Virus record (IMG/VR): IMGVR_UViG_3300021373_001378
Span: 4,570 to 68,569 of that record
Source of the DNA: a virus
Length of the DNA stretch: 64,000 nt
Strand: one strand, 5' to 3'
Shown here: piece after piece, positions 4,299 to 28,500 of the stretch
How the letters are laid out: every line of letters starts with the position of its first letter
Position numbering within the stretch: the stretch's first letter is position 1
The notes under the pieces: model-generated
Told to the model about the DNA's origin: nothing
The model's database searches: none
The model's input: only the letters and a program-made list of their open reading frames with translations
Translations under genes and position numbers: made by a program

Positions 4299-4516
4299 TA
4301 TACTGCCGTTTGAAATAAATTATTAAACATAGTTCTTAGCTCAGTAGTTCCTACTGTAGCTCCTGTAGCTTGTAATCTTCTTCTAAAATTATCTGCTTTC
4401 TTACTATATGCGTGTAAACCATCATTTGATGTTTTGTTTGCATAAAATTCTGACGTTGGAAATGTCATTCCTGTCATTGCACATTGCTTAGTTGTTACTT
4501 TTTTTCTTCTTGCCAT
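4298..4516 (-). CDS. Hypothetical basic protein
   Basis: ORF overlapping neighbours in the replication operon. Confidence 0.6.
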   Translation of the reverse strand: MARRKKVTTKQCAMTGMTFPTSEFYANKTSNDGLHAYSKKADNFRRRLQATGATVGTTELRTMFNNLFQTAV

Positions 4517-4527
4517 AATAATTGGTT

Positions 4528-5256
4528 TTAAAGGGTTTTACTAATAAAATATTGTTTCGGATCGAAACTGTCTGTCTTATAAAACAGATCGTAAGCCTCA
4601 CTGGCTCTTTTAACCTTGTCTTGCCCAGCTTCATAAAACTGAGGCGAACAGTCAAATATACCTATTTGATGTGTTTTTTTGTCTATAACTATAAACATAA
4701 ATTCATAACCAAATAGACTACTATAAATAAAAGCTTGACTATCGTAATTGTATTTAGATGCTGAGAATTTAAACTTAGAAAGATCTGCTGTAGTTTTTAA
4801 ATCAATAATTAATTTTTCATCGTGATTAACTATATCAGCTTTGCCTTTCCACATTTGACCTTCAAGCTCTGTAATACCAGGTTTTTCGTATTCAACATTA
4901 CCTGTTATTAAACTTTTACATACATCATTACTCATGATTTTTTCTCTCATTAATTCTATAGAGTCAACTTCATGTTGTAACAAGCATAGCTCTCCTCCAG
5001 CTATGTCTTTGTAAGCTTTTGTATTTCTAGTAGACGATTTCACAACTTTATATTTATCAAGCTTATTAGGCTCTAATATAGCTGTGTGAAAGTAGCCACC
5101 AACTAAAAATGCAGCTGATGGTTTTGACTGTTGTCCAAGTGCTAAAGGGTTGTTTAATAAAGCTGAAATATCTGAGTTACTTAAGTATTGTTTACCAAAG
5201 TCACCGTAGTAATGCTCATCAATTTTAAGCTTATCTAACACCTCTTTTTTAGTCAT
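4528..5256 (-). CDS. PD-(D/E)xK exonuclease (RecE/exonuclease VIII-like)
   Basis: LSNSDI, GGYFHTAILEP, KGKADIV...IIDLKTT, YDSQAFIY motifs. Confidence 0.85.
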   Translation of the reverse strand: MTKKEVLDKLKIDEHYYGDFGKQYLSNSDISALLNNPLALGQQSKPSAAFLVGGYFHTAILEPNKLDKYKVVKSSTRNTKAYKDIAGGELCLLQHEVDSIELMREKIMSNDVCKSLITGNVEYEKPGITELEGQMWKGKADIVNHDEKLIIDLKTTADLSKFKFSASKYNYDSQAFIYSSLFGYEFMFIVIDKKTHQIGIFDCSPQFYEAGQDKVKRASEAYDLFYKTDSFDPKQYFISKTL

Positions 5257-5817: not shown

Positions 5818-6582
5818 CTACAGATAATCAATCACTTGCGAGTGATCTACATTATCTATAAGACGTTGTATTCCTTCACGTTTTATCTGTGAAATACGTA
5901 CATGAGCTGTGCTTACGTTTATACCTAGTTTAGCTGCTATTTCATTAGCAGAATGTTTGTCACAATTTAAACCATAGCTTAATCTTATGACTTCGTATTG
6001 TTTAGCATCTAAATGAGTTTTCATTAATGATAATAAATAAGTATTTAGTAAAGCTATATTATATGGTTCAGACTTATCTATAACTTGATAAGCCATATTG
6101 TCATCATCATTAGGTTTATCATCAATACTAGAAAATACACTATTAAAAAACATAGCTACCATCCTTTCATCTTTAGGATTTCTACGTATTTCATTTAGTT
6201 TATGTTCAGGTATTCTTATATCACCCCTATGTTTGTCTACAGCTCTTCTAATAGCTCCTTTAATTCTTTTTGATAAGAAAGATTTTAATGTTTTTTCTTG
6301 ATCATCTGAACTTTTTAAAAGAGTTCTATCTACTTTACCTACAGCTGCTGTTAATGCTAAATTACCTTCTTGTATTAAATCATTTATACTCATAACACCT
6401 GATGCTTGTTGTGATGTTGATTGTTTGTGAGCTAGATTAAATACTAGTAACAAAAATGTTTTAATCATTTCATCATTAGTAAGGGGAGTATAATCACCAT
6501 CAATTATTTCAGGTAATGTTTTTTGTATTTCCTCCACTTCTAATTTATATCTTACATAATTTTGAACGTTATATTTTTTCAT
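5818..6582 (-). CDS. Phage sigma-70 family factor
   Basis: Region 2 DLIQEGNLAL..AV, IRIPEH, region 4 VIRLSYGL...EIAAKLGI...RISQIKREGIQRL. Confidence 0.9.
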   Translation of the reverse strand: MKKYNVQNYVRYKLEVEEIQKTLPEIIDGDYTPLTNDEMIKTFLLLVFNLAHKQSTSQQASGVMSINDLIQEGNLALTAAVGKVDRTLLKSSDDQEKTLKSFLSKRIKGAIRRAVDKHRGDIRIPEHKLNEIRRNPKDERMVAMFFNSVFSSIDDKPNDDDNMAYQVIDKSEPYNIALLNTYLLSLMKTHLDAKQYEVIRLSYGLNCDKHSANEIAAKLGINVSTAHVRISQIKREGIQRLIDNVDHSQVIDYL

Positions 6583-10236: not shown

Positions 10237-10256
10237 GTTAAAATATTTAATGTTAG

Positions 10257-10329
10257 TTGCGGCGGATAGATTCGAACTACCGACCTTCGGGTTATGAGCC
10301 CGACGAGCTGACCACTGCTCCACGCCGCA
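10257..10329 (-). tRNA. tRNA-fMet (CAT), initiator type, no encoded CCA
   Basis: TGCGGCG/CGCCGCA acceptor, D arm GAGCAGTGGTCAGCTC, anticodon arm TCGGG-CTCATAA-CCCGA with 3 G-C pairs, T loop TTCGAAT. Confidence 0.95.
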
Positions 10330-11307: not shown

Positions 11308-11333
11308 ATTTAATTATTTAATGTTAGAGTGGC

Positions 11334-11400
11334 GACCAACCTGTGAGCAATGTCGTAAGCTTCTCACGGTGAATGCAACGTGTGACTAATTTCACCAGTC
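11334..11400 (-). ncRNA. Putative structured RNA unit D (two hairpins)
   Basis: GGTGAA/TTCACC and GTGAG/CTCAC stems closed by GACT/GGTC. Confidence 0.4.
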
Positions 11401-11405
11401 TGTAG

Positions 11406-11505
11406 TGGACGTGGCAGGAATCGAACCTGCGTTAAGCGTCACGAAAGACATCCAGTACTCTTTCAACTGTTCCAATCGTTCTTAGCTTCTTACCAATTCA
11501 CGCCC
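11406..11505 (-). ncRNA. Mini-tmRNA-like RNA (tRNA-like domain only, G3-U70, no anticodon, no tag ORF)
   Basis: GGGCGTG/CACGTCC-A acceptor with G3-U70; unpaired D-loop AATTGGTAAG; irregular long stem; AAC linker; T arm GCAGG-TTCGATT-CCTGC. Confidence 0.75.
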
Positions 11506-11509
11506 TTAT

Positions 11510-11587
11510 GAGAGGCACCAGTCGCGGACCGGTACTAACTAGTATTATGCTTTATCCGCGCTTTTGACCAGTATGCCGCCGCCTCTC
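11510..11587 (-). ncRNA. Putative structured RNA unit B (long bulged hairpin)
   Basis: GAGAGGC/GCCTCTC, ACTGGTC/GACTGGT, GCGGA/TCCGC nested stems; GC-rich in an AT-rich genome. Confidence 0.55.
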
Positions 11588-11588
11588 T

Positions 11589-11675
11589 GCCAGCTATTCA
11601 CTTACGTGTTTGTAATACACTTCCGTAATGCCTAAAAAGGACACACATACAAACCTATTAAGCTACTCGTCTGGC
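11589..11675 (-). ncRNA. Putative structured RNA unit A (multi-stem)
   Basis: GCCAG/CTGGC closing stem; internal CCT-TTTT-AGG and TTAC..GTGT/ACAC.GTAA hairpins. Confidence 0.4.
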
Positions 11676-11681
11676 TACTTT

Positions 11682-11870
11682 TTACTTTCTACGCCAAGAT
11701 TTATGAACTGCGTTACTTAGTTCTTGACTTACTATCTGTACTTCGAGTACTTGTTTGTTTGCAATGATAGGTATATAACTATATTGCTTTGTTTCACTGC
11801 AGTTTACACAGGTTGAATAACCTAGTGCTAGTCTGCCTGCTGGAATTTTATTATTACATTTGCATCTCAT
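11682..11870 (-). CDS. DksA/TraR-like C4 zinc-finger protein
   Basis: MRCKCNNKIPAGRLALGYSTCVNC matches the CxxC..IP..RL.....CxxC pattern. Confidence 0.6.
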   Translation of the reverse strand: MRCKCNNKIPAGRLALGYSTCVNCSETKQYSYIPIIANKQVLEVQIVSQELSNAVHKSWRRK

Positions 11871-13383: not shown

Positions 13384-13399
13384 ATAGTTAATTTTATTA

Positions 13400-13431
13400 T
13401 ATTATCCAACAGTGATCGTATTTAGTTTGTA
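13400..13431 (-). promoter_or_regulatory. Class I (early) motif copy 5
   Basis: TACAAAC-TAAA-TACGA-TCACTGTT-GGATAATA. Confidence 0.75.
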
Positions 13432-13553
13432 TAATGATAGTCAGTATATTCTTCAACAGTCACCCATTTTTCTATATCATGAGAGTAAATCATACCATCA
13501 ATTACATGTTCGTCACTAAATGACCATATTTTATTGTGTTTATGTTTTCTCAT
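13422..13553 (-). CDS. Small hypothetical protein (43 aa)
   Basis: MRKHKHNKIWSFSDEHVIDGMIYSHDIEKWVTVEEYTDYHYTN. Confidence 0.55.
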   Translation of the reverse strand: MRKHKHNKIWSFSDEHVIDGMIYSHDIEKWVTVEEYTDYHYTN

Positions 13554-13735
13554 AGTGAATTAGTTAGTTTACCATCTTCTGTAAAATGACCATATAGTTT
13601 ACCATTTACTCTATACTCACTTTCAACTTTGTGAGTTTCAATTATACCAAGAACATCTGCTCTTGTTAATTTGTTTTCCATTTGTAGACCAATAGCCCAC
13701 GTTAAATCATTGTTATATTTATCAGTGAAAATCAT
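13550..13735 (-). CDS. Hypothetical early protein
   Basis: ORF track; ATGA-coupled. Confidence 0.6.
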   Translation of the reverse strand: MIFTDKYNNDLTWAIGLQMENKLTRADVLGIIETHKVESEYRVNGKLYGHFTEDGKLTNSL

Positions 13736-13872
13736 ACGCCTACAAATATTAGTTGATAAAACATAAATAGTATTCCAGATACTGACATTGGTAGTAATAC
13801 ACCAAGACCATAAATCTCTGCTATTACTTGAAGTAAAGGTTTTGACTTTACATATTTTCTAATTTTTTTCAT
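13732..13872 (-). CDS. Small single-pass membrane protein (46 aa)
   Basis: MKKIRKYVKSKPLLQVIAEIYGLGVLLPMSVSGILFMFYQLIFVGV. Confidence 0.55.
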   Translation of the reverse strand: MKKIRKYVKSKPLLQVIAEIYGLGVLLPMSVSGILFMFYQLIFVGV

Positions 13873-13896
13873 ATTATTAAATTTTATTATTGTTAG

Positions 13897-13937
13897 TAGA
13901 CATGGTGAGAATCGAACTCACATTAACCATTATGTCT
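13897..13937 (-). ncRNA. 41-nt anticodon-less mini-tRNA (acceptor stem + D-loop-like linker + T arm)
   Basis: AGACATA-ATGGTTAAT-GTGAG-TTCGATT-CTCAC-CATGTCT-A followed by CTAACA, the same trailer as the tRNA-fMet. Confidence 0.7.
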
Positions 13938-13995
13938 TGTACTCATTCGCAATTTATACTGTTAGAAACAAGTGGAACTCGCAGTGAAGTTAAAG

Positions 13996-14223
13996 TTATA
14001 CTAACTCTTTACCTCTTAACACTACTGGAATATTATTAGTTGCAGTGTATGATTTGTACTTTATGAAACACGCCATTTTTTCTAAGTTTGATTTCATAAT
14101 GTTGTACGCTTTGTCGTGATTGTACACATGTTTAACACCTTTTTTGTTAGTGAATTCAATTGTTACATTTTTACCAATTAGTGACTGTCTGATGACAAAT
14201 CTTTTTGAAATTAAGTTACTCAT
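13996..14223 (-). CDS. Conserved first early gene, hypothetical
   Basis: KRFVIRQSLIGKN...YNHDK...KYKSYTATNNIP. Confidence 0.75.
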   Translation of the reverse strand: MSNLISKRFVIRQSLIGKNVTIEFTNKKGVKHVYNHDKAYNIMKSNLEKMACFIKYKSYTATNNIPVVLRGKELV

Positions 14224-19241: not shown

Positions 19242-20792
19242 ATGGAATATAATAACCCAAGTGAGATAGTAAAGGATCTGTCGTTCGGGACAGATGCTAG
19301 AGCAAAAATAATGGTAGGTGTTGATAAATTAGCCAAAGCGGTTAAATCAACCCTTGGCGCTTCTGGTAAATGCGTAATTTACGAGGACGCACTAGGAAGA
19401 CCGGTGATAACAAAAGACGGAGTAACCGTTGCGGAAAGCGTAGTCTTAATTGACCCGGTCGAAAATATAGGTGCAACCTTAATAAAAGAAGCGGCTAAAA
19501 ACACAGTGAAAGAAGCAGGTGACGGTACTACTACAGCTACCGTCCTTGCTCAATCACTTTTACAAAATGTGTATGCTGGGCAGAACACAGACATAAGACA
19601 AATAAAAAATGGTATATCTAGCGGACTGCAAAAAGTTAATAAGTATTTATCAAAACACAGCAAAGCAGTATCTGGCAATATGCTTAAAAACGTTGCGAGT
19701 ATTTCTTGCAACAATGACAAAGAATTAGGTTACACTATAGCTTCTGCTTTTGAACAAGTAGGTAAAAATGGTGTAGTTTTAATGGAAGAGTCTGAAACTG
19801 ATCAAACTTATGTAGATATTGTAGATGGTGTGCAAATTGATTCAGGTATTAAGTCACAACATTTAATAACTGACAAACAAAAAAATAAAATAGAGCTAGA
19901 AGATGCTTATGTATTAATTGTATCTTCACCTATACCAAACATTAGAAAAATACAAAGCGTATTAGAGTTTGTTATAAAAAATAAAAAATCATTACTTTTA
20001 GTAGCTGAAGTTGATCAACAACCATTTTCAGCATTATTAATGAATAAAGTTAAAGGTAATATAAAAATAAACATAATTGATCCACCAGGTTTTGGACCAA
20101 GTAGATTAGAAACTTTAGAGGATCTAGCTATGCTAACAGGTGCAAAACTTATAAATGAAGAACTTGGTGATGATCTTGATATGATTAGTCCTGATGTTTT
20201 AGGATTTACTAAAAAAGCAGTGACTGATAATAAAACTACAGTAATAACTATAGATGAAAGAAGCGAAGATGTAGTAGAAAGAATAAAAACTGTAGAAAAT
20301 AAAATTAAAGAAGAAAAGCACGCATACTTAAAAAAGAAACTAGAGCAAAGGTTAGCTATGTTATCAGGAGCTGTAGGTGTTGTTAAGGTTGGTGCTAATT
20401 CTAAACTAGAATTAAAAGAAAAGAAAGATAGAGTTGAAGATGCTATTTATGCAACTAAAGCCGCTTTAAAAGAAGGTATTGTTCCAGGAGGTGGAGTAGC
20501 GTTATTAAATGCTGCTCAAAATATTGAAGCAAAAAACGAAGGAGAGAAGATACTATTACAATCTATAAAATGGCCATACTCTACAATACTAGAAAATGCT
20601 GGTATACCTTATATAGAACCTAAACAAAAAGGTTTCGGTGTAGATGTTACAAATGGTGATGTGTATAGCATGATGAAAGCAGGTATAATTGATCCTGTGC
20701 TTGTAACTAAAACAGCTTTAATAAATGCGGTAAGTGTTGTAAATACAATTATCTCTGCAGATTGTGTAATATCAAATGTAAGAGAGGTATGA
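19242..20792 (+). CDS. groL: Chaperonin GroEL (phage-encoded)
   Basis: ITKDGVTVA, AGDGTTTATVLA, GIVPGGG, GIIDP..VT; lacks the GGM tail. Confidence 0.97.
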   Translation: MEYNNPSEIVKDLSFGTDARAKIMVGVDKLAKAVKSTLGASGKCVIYEDALGRPVITKDGVTVAESVVLIDPVENIGATLIKEAAKNTVKEAGDGTTTATVLAQSLLQNVYAGQNTDIRQIKNGISSGLQKVNKYLSKHSKAVSGNMLKNVASISCNNDKELGYTIASAFEQVGKNGVVLMEESETDQTYVDIVDGVQIDSGIKSQHLITDKQKNKIELEDAYVLIVSSPIPNIRKIQSVLEFVIKNKKSLLLVAEVDQQPFSALLMNKVKGNIKINIIDPPGFGPSRLETLEDLAMLTGAKLINEELGDDLDMISPDVLGFTKKAVTDNKTTVITIDERSEDVVERIKTVENKIKEEKHAYLKKKLEQRLAMLSGAVGVVKVGANSKLELKEKKDRVEDAIYATKAALKEGIVPGGGVALLNAAQNIEAKNEGEKILLQSIKWPYSTILENAGIPYIEPKQKGFGVDVTNGDVYSMMKAGIIDPVLVTKTALINAVSVVNTIISADCVISNVREV

Positions 20793-25504: not shown

Positions 25505-28500
25505 ATGGCTAAAAAGTTTTTAACCGATATTAACATAGCCGGAGGAGTATATGATTCTAGTGGTGACATAGGAAACAGTGGACAAGTATTATCATCTACT
25601 GGTTCTGGTGTTAACTGGATAAACGCGACTTCTTCAGCAAGTATAATTTACCAAGACGGTTTCACAGGTGATGGTAGCACGACTGCTTTTACATTAGCCA
25701 ACAGTCTAGACAATGAAAATAAAACACAAGTATATATAGACGGTGTATACCAACATAAGGATAATTATTCTTTAAGTGGTACAACTCTTACCTTTAGCAC
25801 CGCTCCTCCAAATTCAAGTGATATAGAAGTAATGTCATTCAGTAGCGTTTCAGCTGCTGATGATATTTTATACGATGACGATTTCACATCCGCTGGTTTA
25901 ATGACAACCAACGGGTCGGGCGTGTATAGCATAACTACAAATAATTCATCAAACTGGAATACTGCTTACGGCTGGGGCGATCATTCTACTCAAGGATATA
26001 TAACAGATGGTAATACAAATTGGAATAACTCATATGGATTTATTACAGCATCATCAACTGATACGCTTACAAATAAATCAGGTAACGTTTCAATGTTTAC
26101 TAATGATAGTGGGTATATTACAGATGGTAATACAAACTGGAATAATAGCTATGGATTTATTACGTCTAGTTCTACAGAAACTTTAACTAACAAGTCGGGT
26201 AACATTTCTATGTTTACCAACGACTCTAATTACGCTACGCAAAGCTACGTTAATACACAGGTTTCAAACCTTGTAGATTCAGCACCTTCAACTTTAGATA
26301 CACTGAATGAACTTGCTGCTGCATTAGGTGACGACGCTAATTTTAGTACTACTGTAACTAACTCTATAGCTACAAAATTACCACTTGCTGGTGGGACAAT
26401 TACCGGCGATTTAGAAGTAAATAGTATTTTATATAATAGATCTACATTAAGAGTTTTAAACGCAGCTGGAACTGGTTGGCACGACTGGGCAACTAGAGGT
26501 GGTGGCAAATACGATTTAAATGTAAATAATATTACAGTAGCGGCAATAACCGCTTCAGGAAATGTAACAGCTTCATCTGGTACTGGTCATTTTTCTGTAG
26601 TTAATTCTTCAGCATATCAGTTAAACGGTACTTATGTAATGGATTCCAGTAGGAATTTAGTTAATATAGCTAATATAACCGCTTCAGGAAATGTAACTGT
26701 TACTGGTAATGTAGCATCTTTAGATACTTTTTATTTACAAAATGGTAGTGGTAAAAGATGGCAAATGCTATTTGATACTAATGATTTTAATTTAAGATAT
26801 TATAATGGTAGTAGTTGGAGTGCAGATGCTTTAGCGATAGACACTTCAAATAACGCAACGTTTGCAGGTAATTTAATGCTATTGAGTGGAACAAGTGGCA
26901 CAACCGATAAACTAATATTTAAAAGAACAGATAATGCTAGCGAAGCAAGCTTCATAAGAACTAATGCGTATTGGAATGAATATGGAGCACATACTAACGA
27001 AGGTCATAAATTTATAGACAGTTCCGGTAACATACTACTTCAATTAAACGGTGGTAATAGTACAACTGGTAATGGTTCGTTGTCAGCAACTTTTGCAGGC
27101 AATGTAACCACTGGCGCCCTACAAGCGCAATCCTGGTTATTTAGATCAATGTCCGGCCAAGTTGAATATCATGTGCTAAATAATGGTAATATAAATGGAC
27201 CTAGTTGGAAATTTAGATACGATGGTGCCACTGCTAATAGATGGGTTGATTTTGGGTATAAAGATGGGAATGGAACATATTATGAAGGTTTAAAATTATA
27301 TAATAATTCAACGATAACTTGGAAAGGAAACACAATGTGGCATGCTGGCAATGACGGCTCAGGTTCTGGATTAGATGCAGATTTATTGGATGGTGTTCAA
27401 GGTAGTGGGTATTATCGTTATTATGAAACAACTGCAATTTCTAGTTATGACTCTCTCACTGCAGGAGCATGGAGTACAAACAGCACATCCGCAACAAATA
27501 TTCCTTATGGTAATTATAATGCAACTTGGCATATTTCTGATACTGCGAGTGATAGACAATATCAAATATGGATGGGGGATACTTCTGCAGGTGGTTTAAG
27601 ATTTAGAGCAAAACAAGGCTCCTCTACTGGGTGGCATGGTTGGGAAAAAGTTTGGACAGATGTAAATGACGGCCCAGGATCAGGTTTAAATGCTGACTTG
27701 TTAGATGGTATAGGTGGTGATGGTTATTTAAGAAGCAACGCTGCGGATACACTTAGTGCTGCAATAACGTTAGATAATAATGGTTATTTTGTAGGTTCAC
27801 CAACCCATGGGTTTAGATTCAATAATAGTGGAGATACGATAAATGCTTTAATAGTAGATAATAGCGGTAATTCAATAGCTTATGCATCCCACAGAGCACC
27901 TATATTTTATGATTCAAATAATACAGCTTATTTTTATCACGGGGATAGTAGTGCTTCACTTGCTGGTCAAATGAATATTCACGGAGGAACATCAGGCAGC
28001 TATGGTAACCAATTAGTAGTAGGGCAATCAAGTATTAATTTACCATATACACTTCAAGATACCAATCAAAGACCTATAATAGCGGCTACTGGAGCATATC
28101 CAGTATTGCATTTAAACCACACTGTAACATCTAACTCTGCTCATGGACCAACAATACAATTTACGCATAATGGAAATGCCGGAAGACAATGGCTAATTGG
28201 TAGTAGTGGTGATGGGGAACATTTGTTTATTGGATTTTCAAATACTAGCCAAGGCAATTCAAGCTGGAATCCTCATAATGGTATATCTGGGTATTCAGGC
28301 ACAAGTCCAATGACATTTCACGAAAACGGAAGAGTTGGTATTGGAGGTGATTGGGGCGTATACGGATCAGGAGATCCAGGATATGCAATTGATACAAGAG
28401 GTACATTATATAATAATACAGATGTTAGAGCACCAATATTTTATGATTCAAACAATACAGGTTTTTACGCACATCTGGACAATTCTGGTGTAAACACTAG

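Follow-up and report, generated by a model that had tools for sequence, protein, structure and literature searches.

Comparative evidence for a widespread family of 41-nt anticodon-less mini-tRNAs in phages, with a possible role in transcript processing

Introduction

Does a 41-nucleotide (nt) stretch between two small open reading frames (ORFs) of a viral genome encode an RNA that imitates part of a tRNA and, if so, what could such an RNA do for a phage? The stretch lies in IMG/VR virus record IMGVR_UViG_3300021373_001378, of which bases 4570-68569 of 68,569 base pairs (bp) were analyzed (64,000 nt, hereafter referred to as the window). From the letters of the window, a first-pass annotation had described it as an anticodon-less mini-tRNA, in which an acceptor stem is stacked on a T arm and joined to it by a D-loop-like linker with a GG, while the D stem and the anticodon arm are absent, and had placed it in a phage of Bacteroidota. 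In tRNA, two Gs of the D loop dock on the T loop and form the elbow, and RNase P, RNase Z and the CCA-adding enzyme recognize the acceptor/T-arm stack together with this elbow. The comparisons reported here indicate, with very strong comparative support, that the mini-tRNA represents a widespread and unannotated phage RNA family.

The mini-tRNA and its covarying relatives

The 41-nt reading proved exact, and the element is located on the minus strand, as the reverse complement of the stretch (coordinates in Table 1). When the 41 nt were folded alone with RNAfold, the minimum free energy (MFE) structure was made up of acceptor stem plus T arm (-8.2 kcal/mol), and this fold was unchanged inside 133 nt of context. 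The fold-energy z-score against shuffled sequences was only -1.06, and thermodynamics alone would not single the element out.

Relatives were found by sequence. An exact 24-mer across the linker and T arm was present in 33 IMG/VR contigs, in which the flanking acceptor strands differ yet are mutually complementary, and a looser pattern that left the T stem free identified at least 118 loci. Among 88 distinct contexts, all five T-stem pairs were found in 79, four in one and three or fewer in 8, with the last group looking like chance matches. Among 71 distinct 48-nt elements with at least four T-stem pairs, 67 have all six acceptor pairs, even though 38 different acceptor 5' strands are represented. 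The base following the acceptor 5' strand is A in 70 of these 71 elements, while its 3' partner is C, A, T, G or absent, and the acceptor stem therefore has 6 bp rather than 7. The stem had been described beforehand as 6 bp plus an A-C mismatch, with a 7-bp search descriptor; the 6 bp stand, and the seventh pair is not selected. A spacer base between the T stem and the acceptor 3' strand is present in 44-45 of the 71 elements and absent in 26-27.

In 45 copies aligned in one register, 99.2% of the stem cells were paired, as compared to a shuffled mean of 59.6% (0 of 500 shuffles were as high), and pairing fell to 33-49% when the partners were slid against each other. The first-pass annotation had made its reading depend on compensatory changes in relatives, and both-sided changes were found in 10 of the 11 pairs of these copies; the eleventh, the G-C pair that closes the T loop, is invariant. 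For 72 distinct rows, in an alignment fitted with a covariance model, pairing was 99.0%, with 22 G.U cells and 8 mismatches. RNAalifold recovered the same structure from the alignment. The G.U cells and the mismatch count fit an RNA of the minus strand, and these alignments indicate that the stem structure is under selection.

The covariance model built from the relatives (R1) gave the window copy 69.4 bits (E 1.6e-14) and found this single strong match in the window and in the whole 68.6-kb record. Over the fetched loci, R1 yielded 156 matches, 102 of them distinct, which covered 125 of 133 IMG/VR loci and all 16 genome-contig loci; the 8 IMG/VR loci without a match were the chance pattern matches. 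No ordinary tRNA in the fetched loci was matched by R1 at E<0.01. The architecture that the first-pass annotation had drawn is now carried by covariation across about 100 distinct relatives. Since the relatives covary and R1 scores strongly, the element is more than a chance resemblance.

These data also bear on the idea that the element is a feature or relic of the DNA with no function as RNA, for example what is left of a tRNA gene after decay, a tRNA fragment of the attP type or a hot spot of recombination. The change of the downstream gene between relatives and a mosaic joint at the 3' edge of the mini-tRNA would suit such an origin. Against it stand the compensatory changes in both stems of about 100 distinct copies and the presence of G.U pairs on this strand only; moreover, an attP core would fix the 3' acceptor strand of a host tRNA, whereas here this strand covaries with its 5' partner. 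A DNA-level explanation is regarded as highly improbable.

The linker and T loop are nearly constant. GGU in the linker is invariant, including in the variants found by R1 (such as the linkers AAAGG, AACGG, AUUGG, GGUUUAU and GGUUCAAU), and the T loop UUCGAUU is nearly fixed, with at least 118 loci as compared to 3 with a UUCRAAU loop in a scan with the same linker.

Class membership and likeness to tRNA genes

The standard RNA finders missed the element, as the first-pass annotation had expected. ARAGORN reported only a tRNA-Met at 10256-10329 in the window, and Rfam returned nothing at the element at E<=10 in a 7-kb search. A search restricted to 141 nt gave only T-arm-level matches to tmRNA models (tmRNA 9.5 bits and tmRNA_permuted 12.6 bits, as compared to a gathering threshold of 47), and RF00005 did not match at E<=10 even in this search. 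No Rfam match of the Y RNA/YrlA type, a family of tRNA mimics with a Ro-binding helix attached to the tRNA-like module and presumably represented in Rfam, was found around the element at E<=10, and the mini-tRNA family is absent from Rfam 15. With the 41 nt as query, blastn matched only the T arms of ordinary tRNAs, and no DNA similarity to the 3-kb surroundings of the element was found among INPHARED phages.

The element was compared with the defining features of known classes. Six acceptor pairs are kept, position seven holding A opposite C, A, T, G or nothing, and the discriminator is present. The T arm agrees with that of a tRNA, with a 5-bp stem in which 4 of 5 pairs covary, an invariant equivalent of G53-C61 and the loop UUCGAUU. 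The D stem, anticodon arm and variable region are missing, as just 10 nt separate the acceptor 5' strand from the T stem. The features of tmRNA are missing as well: the third acceptor pair is UA, AU, CG or GC, with GU in 2 of 72 distinct rows, and no insert that could hold helix 2, pseudoknots or a tag ORF is found between linker and T arm. The element agrees with t-elements in having a tRNA-like fold with a T-arm motif beside, and co-oriented with, other RNAs. Conserved aminoacylation of the mini-tRNA is unlikely because the acceptor sequences are free and G3.U70 is essentially absent.

Likeness to tRNA genes extends into the 3' flank. In 94 distinct mini-tRNAs, position 73 is A in 64, position 74 is C in 85, position 75 is U in 61 (A in 25) and position 76 is A in 74. 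The tRNA-Met gene of the window ends with A, C and then TAAC, and the single tRNA genes of related phages end alike. The trailer follows the clade, being CUAA for both the tRNA-Met and the mini-tRNA in the clade of the window and CAAA/CAGA in a clade of phages with tRNA arrays, where C is followed by AAA in tRNA genes and by AGA or similar bases in the mini-tRNA. In a Flavobacteriaceae metagenome-assembled genome (MAG; G001, loci L167-L189), C74 is encoded by all 23 tRNA genes, A/T-rich sequence comes next and CCA is encoded by none; C74 is also found in all phage tRNA genes listed (L006-L099), where CCA is encoded in 5 phage genes only. To judge from these sequences, the mini-tRNA copies the acceptor/T-arm stack, the D-loop GG, the discriminator and the lineage-specific 3' flank of tRNA genes. 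In bacterial RNase P RNA, the P15 loop is able to pair with C74.

Two further observations concern the tRNA genes themselves. The occurrence of C74 in MAG and phage tRNA genes, with CCA seldom or never encoded, points to a rule shared across the lineage, either for processing of the 3' end or for contact with RNase P. The tRNA-Met(CAT) on the minus strand, which is the sole standard tRNA of the window phage (relatives likewise have a single tRNA-Met), is initiator-like in that the lowest three pairs of the anticodon stem are all G:C, but it has U1-A72.

Distribution among phages

The large terminase of the window most resembles its counterparts in phages of Flavobacterium, Cellulophaga, Tenacibaculum and Maribacter; the 87 records that matched all came from these four groups or from one uncultured podovirus, with 62.5% identity to the latter and at most 44% to the others. 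The phage type given in the first-pass annotation is supported along with its structural reading. The mini-tRNA is carried by the marine podophages of Flavobacteriia to which the window belongs, by crAss-like phages (about 30 gut contigs and the uncultured phage cr53_1, NC_055889.1, Suoliviridae), where it sits in an unannotated gap before the DNA primase gene, and by marine phages with large tRNA arrays, where it is found on the tRNA strand. Cellular genomes gave only 16 matches among one genome for each of 185,579 prokaryote species, mostly on Bacteroidota MAG contigs with a few in Firmicutes and Gammaproteobacteria bins.

Among cultured phages, a variant that scored 25 bits was found in P738, a phage of Streptococcus thermophilus, and in CSJC, Taco and Mushu, phages of S. 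lutetiensis/S. equinus. The acceptor stem of this variant has 7 bp and the GG linker 11 nt, a T arm is present, and one A-to-G change retains a G.U pair. The variant is located about 25 nt behind a sigma-70-type promoter (TTGAAA-17-TATAAT) and about 45 nt before a Shine-Dalgarno sequence and ATG. Listeria phage LP-125 gave a match of 18 bits that lies within a tRNA array and was rejected as a member. Separately, Cellulophaga phage phi38:1, a cultured phage without the mini-tRNA, was observed to carry a tRNA- or tRNA-like domain (TLD)-like 3' half with a T arm, an acceptor strand and an A-CUAA trailer just before an ORF start (L159, record positions 26801-26836, minus strand).

Genomic context

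In the window, the mini-tRNA sits in a leftward operon of small ORFs (Table 1), and 25 nt separate its last stem base from the next start codon. In the window's clade of marine podophages, the mini-tRNA is always preceded by the upstream gene, ORF75, represented by 37 distinct proteins across 44 loci; this is the positional conservation that the first-pass annotation had named as a test of its reading. The downstream gene varies among relatives, with 93 distinct proteins in 42 clusters. ORF75 has a confident predicted fold (AlphaFold 2, predicted local distance difference test score 90.3), and no Pfam or PHROG family and no Foldseek match in the PDB at E<=0.001 was found for it.

Table 1. Coordinates of the mini-tRNA, its parts and its neighbors in the window
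Feature	Position	Strand	Evidence or remark
Mini-tRNA	13897..13937	-	Sequence, fold, R1 69.4 bits (E 1.6e-14), covariation
Acceptor stem, 6 bp	5' strand 13937-13932, 3' strand 13903-13898	-	
Unpaired A after acceptor 5' strand	13931	-	
D-loop-like linker including GG	13930-13922	-	9 nt (10 nt counting A 13931)
T stem, 5 bp, perfect	13921-13917 with 13909-13905	-	
T loop UUCGAUU, 7 nt	13916-13910	-	
Spacer C between T stem and acceptor 3' strand	13904	-	
Discriminator A	13897	-	
3' trailer C-U-A-A	13893..13896	-	C74 at 13896 replaces encoded CCA; same as trailer of window tRNA-Met
Leader, short, A/U-rich, weakly structured	13873..13892	-	Between trailer and start codon
Downstream 46-amino-acid ORF	13732..13872	-	ATG at 13872; no known family
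Spacer from ORF75 stop to mini-tRNA, 58 nt	13938..13995	-	Block conserved in closest relatives
ORF75, 75 amino acids	13996..14223	-	Upstream; conserved and syntenic with mini-tRNA in window clade

The block between ORF75 and the mini-tRNA contains a short stem with compensatory changes, an A-rich tract and a strand complementary to the loop of the stem, and it may fold as a small hairpin or pseudoknot. A helix search of this upstream block gave a mean of 6.8 bp as compared to 5.6 bp for shuffled tails, so that the shuffles were not beaten, and MAFFT misaligned the stems. The block was considered as a recurrent promoter and rejected, the motif TTG...TATAAA...GAA occurring once on that strand of the window.

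Across 143 distinct contexts, the mini-tRNA is intergenic in 132, with median distances of 86 nt from the same-strand stop codon and 30.5 nt to the next ORF starting with ATG (mode 15-26 nt). By a crude ORF-coverage measure, it is co-oriented with its surroundings in 111 of 140 contexts, opposite in 10 and ambiguous in 19 (mostly small-ORF or tRNA regions). No terminator-like structure was seen downstream of the mini-tRNA, where 50 nt had a mean MFE of -3.5 kcal/mol. A strong and often terminator-like hairpin ends 0-13 nt before it in about 20-25 of 112 contexts; being confined to this subset, the hairpin was not accepted as a universal part of the element.

Some loci have several copies. In L089, five copies with different stems occur within 3.6 kb, each 6-16 nt behind a same-strand stop codon, and four and three copies were found in L043 and L046, respectively. 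In L089 (8962-12517, minus strand) and L043, the genes concerned were observed to be tandem paralogous ORFs of about 125-145 amino acids, each followed at 6-16 nt by a mini-tRNA with its own compensated stem.

The short distance to the next gene raises the possibility that the mini-tRNA acts in cis as part of a 5' untranslated region (UTR), its base-paired 5' end, once generated by RNase P, blocking 5'-end-dependent decay or tuning translation of the downstream gene. The tightness of this distance, the A/U-rich and unstructured leader behind the mini-tRNA and the promoter-proximal location in Streptococcus phages are in line with such a role. It is hard to reconcile with a trailer that keeps the features of tRNA genes cut on the 3' side, with downstream genes that are unrelated between phages (42 clusters) and with nine loci in which a tRNA array, and no ORF, lies behind the mini-tRNA, and a 5'-UTR role is considered improbable.

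Elsewhere in the window, a GroEL-type chaperonin is encoded at 19242-20792 on the plus strand (PHROG 5725, E 1e-131) and a weakly sigma-70-like protein at 5818-6582 on the minus strand, with region 2 and region 4 matches below the Pfam cut-offs.

Association with GOLLD RNA

GOLLD is a phage RNA that forms a nanocage. In the tRNA-array clade, 9 of 9 loci have a full-length Rfam match to GOLLD (277-303 bits, model positions 1-416) whose last position lies 8-10 nt ahead of the mini-tRNA's first stem base, and since the RF02032 match stops 8-10 nt before it in 9 of 9 loci, the mini-tRNA does not belong to the GOLLD structure itself. These loci are all on marine contigs (L094, with GOLLD at 4455-4867 on the minus strand, and L040, L063, L068, L075, L095, L102, L129 and L132) and have the order tmRNA, tRNA-Met, GOLLD, mini-tRNA and tRNA array (about 18-20 genes). 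In 16 further loci, no large Rfam RNA was found beside the mini-tRNA, only tRNAs, and in the window and most other loci the mini-tRNA occurs without GOLLD.

A related arrangement was found in an unrelated uncultured phage of 635 kb, LR745206.1 (region L201, 419379-422788; GOLLD and element at locus positions 1497-2010). Here, 10 nt lie between GOLLD (287 bits) and a tRNA-like element behind it, which is about 95 nt long and without a D arm. This element combines an AAUGG linker with an internal hairpin and a T arm, has the trailer A-CUA and was missed by both ARAGORN and RF00005. It resembles a longer element of the window at 11403-11505. As far as sequences and positions go, the mini-tRNA and the longer elements without a D arm appear to be interchangeable and to belong to a single functional class.

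Of these longer elements, the one in the window is a 103-nt D-armless tRNA-like RNA on the minus strand, in an ORF-free region (11310-11700), with a 7-bp acceptor stem that includes G3.U70, a GG linker like that of the mini-tRNA, a T arm and the trailer A-CUA; its internal hairpin is long and irregular. It scored 34.8 bits with the Rfam tmRNA model (gathering threshold 47) and, at 26.4 bits, came second among the R1 matches of the window. A tmRNA-like element without a tag and a processing element are both possible identities. In LR745206.1, a second copy of the D-armless element was observed about 1.2 kb upstream.

In a cryo-electron microscopy preprint on GOLLD, the env-38 RNA from a marine sample is described as "downstream of Met-tRNA". 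The preprint does not use the term RNase P, and its available portion names no 3' tRNA-like element. The parts available of a 2026 review and of a 2017 motif paper mention only the proximity of GOLLD to tRNA arrays. Full-text searches returned no description of such a phage element, and an earlier mention of a 3' tRNA-like element in GOLLD alignments is possible.

Proposed function

Taken together, the evidence argues, with modest confidence, for the mini-tRNA as a minimal substrate of RNase P, 3'-processing and CCA-adding enzymes that punctuates phage transcripts. A role as a cleavage signal had been proposed in the first-pass annotation and is favored because of the tRNA-like trailer, the intercistronic position between co-oriented cistrons, the arrays that alternate genes and mini-tRNAs, and the location 8-10 nt behind GOLLD; the function itself, with every enzymatic step and the biological purpose, is what we infer from these features. 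According to this proposal, the mini-tRNA would be transcribed within a longer phage RNA and would be taken for a tRNA by the tRNA-maturation enzymes of the host. A cut by RNase P at its 5' edge would give the upstream RNA a defined 3' end, this RNA being an mRNA in the window and GOLLD elsewhere, and the upstream hairpin, where present, could cap that RNA after the cut. RNase Z or exonucleases acting at the boundary of discriminator and C74 would leave a short unstructured 5' leader for the downstream cistron, and the CCA-adding enzyme could complete the released mini-tRNA of about 41-44 nt, as a by-product or co-product.

The constancy of linker and T loop raises a different possibility, in which the excised and CCA-tailed RNA of 44 nt acts in trans as a decoy, the other function named in the first-pass annotation, or as a ligand for factors that read only the acceptor end and the elbow, and in which the lack of an anticodon would keep it from disturbing decoding. 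Candidates for such factors are toxins that modify or cut tRNA 3' ends, RelA, SmpB, the ribosomal E site and the CCA-adding enzyme. In phages from separate bacterial phyla, both linker and T loop are almost invariant, beyond what an RNase P substrate would be expected to require, and the T loop UUCGAUU is the Rfam consensus of tmRNA and not that of tRNA. The mini-tRNA also stands among RNA genes in tRNA-array phages, has a promoter about 25 nt upstream in Streptococcus phages and is present as one gene-like copy per genome in a syntenic place. No terminator follows it, though, and in every case it runs on into a cistron or tRNA array downstream; the five-copy arrays with different stems, tight behind stop codons, resemble punctuation rather than dosage; no aminoacylation identity is conserved (38 5' strands among 71 elements, G3.U70 in 2 of 72); and no partner protein was found to co-occur across clades. 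Action in trans is a tentative possibility. That the free CCA-tailed, anticodon-less RNA is the actual product, as a sponge for host factors or defense toxins or, in GOLLD phages, as a tRNA-shaped handle or cargo of the GOLLD nanocage, with the cuts serving to make it, is likewise a tentative possibility. The processing and trans-acting roles are compatible, and both can be true.

Several points weigh against a role of the mini-tRNA in processing, or against the data on which it is based. The stacked helix has 11 bp (12 layers with the A.N mismatch) and not the canonical 12 bp, and both linker and T loop vary less than those of real tRNAs, so that the partner may be more specific than RNase P. 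Most phages have a single copy, which excludes a general punctuation of all cistrons, and the promoter-proximal copies of Streptococcus phages have little upstream RNA to release. The upstream hairpin signal is weak overall (mean MFE -7.85 kcal/mol as compared to -6.87 kcal/mol in control regions, p=0.07). R1 found no mini-tRNA in any of the seven Bacteroidota-type records tested (MW202828.1; elemoE of Flavobacterium; phi19:3, phi38:1 and phi14:2 of Cellulophaga; Gundel_1 of Tenacibaculum; and crAss001 of Bacteroides), in which the weak R1 matches were ordinary tRNAs or a TLD-like 3' half, and the mini-tRNA would therefore seem to be dispensable or patchy. As for the alignments, linker and T loop were fixed in the patterns by which the sets were gathered, a filter of four or more T-stem pairs dropped 8 of 88 contexts, and the acceptor register was picked for best pairing. 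The RNA data are sparse assembled contigs of marine metatranscriptomes, which are silent on ends, cleavage and CCA tails. In RNA libraries (24 runs, assembled contigs, four examined), a few short contigs cover 13391-14214 and none spans this whole region. One contig of 261 nt is 100% identical to 13893-14134 and diverges directly after the A-CUAA trailer; this divergence at 13893 is best read as a mosaic joint between related phages and not as an RNA end.

If the proposed processing function is true, many phages would carry a purpose-built 41-nt tag that routes transcripts to the tRNA-maturation enzymes of the host, among them crAss-like phages of the gut, marine phages of Flavobacteriia, those with tRNA arrays and those of dairy or rumen Streptococcus. 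For GOLLD, this offers a testable idea of how the ends are formed, with tRNA-Met on the 5' side and the mini-tRNA on the 3' side. The mini-tRNA family accounts for stretches of phage genomes left without annotation so far, and the covariance model can serve in annotating them.

Comparison with known systems

Tags of this kind have precedents in plant mitochondria and in mammalian long noncoding RNAs. Like the mini-tRNA, the t-elements of plant mitochondria are tRNA-like with a T-arm motif and lie beside mRNAs, whose ends coincide with the t-element borders; according to the available parts of the reports, they are cut by RNase P and RNase Z and receive a CCA tail without being aminoacylated (PMC1920247, PMC11658184). 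In contrast to the mini-tRNA, t-elements are decayed organellar tRNA genes, often with a non-canonical cloverleaf, whereas the mini-tRNA has a uniform 41-nt design with a fixed GG linker in many phage lineages, and its processing is a proposal. Similarly, for MALAT1 and MEN-beta, RNase P sets the 3' end of a long noncoding RNA, and the small RNA released (mascRNA) is cut by RNase Z and CCA-tailed (PMC8457004). Both mascRNA and the mini-tRNA behind GOLLD place a tRNA-like structure directly behind a long structured noncoding RNA; mascRNA is eukaryotic, cloverleaf-like, about 60 nt long and without homology to the mini-tRNA, and cleavage between GOLLD and the mini-tRNA is a proposal.

The TLD of tmRNA shares with the mini-tRNA an acceptor stem and T arm, a D-loop analogue without a D stem and the T loop UUCGAUU (Rfam consensus), but the mini-tRNA is without G3.U70 (2 of 72), helix 2, pseudoknots and the tag reading frame, and scored 9.5 bits as compared to the threshold of 47. 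Canonical tRNAs, including those that punctuate mitochondrial transcripts, resemble it in the acceptor/T-arm stack, the elbow of GG and T loop, the discriminator, the C74 trailer and the intercistronic position, whereas the mini-tRNA lacks the D stem, anticodon arm and variable region and so could not decode. Synthetic acceptor-T-arm minihelices have the same helical core, which, as the first-pass annotation had also noted, serves RNase P, RNase Z and the CCA-adding enzyme as a minimal substrate. Unlike these laboratory constructs, which have no D-loop strand, the mini-tRNA is natural and conserved and keeps the GG that forms the elbow, and a natural processing module of 41 nt could be useful for multiplexed RNA expression.

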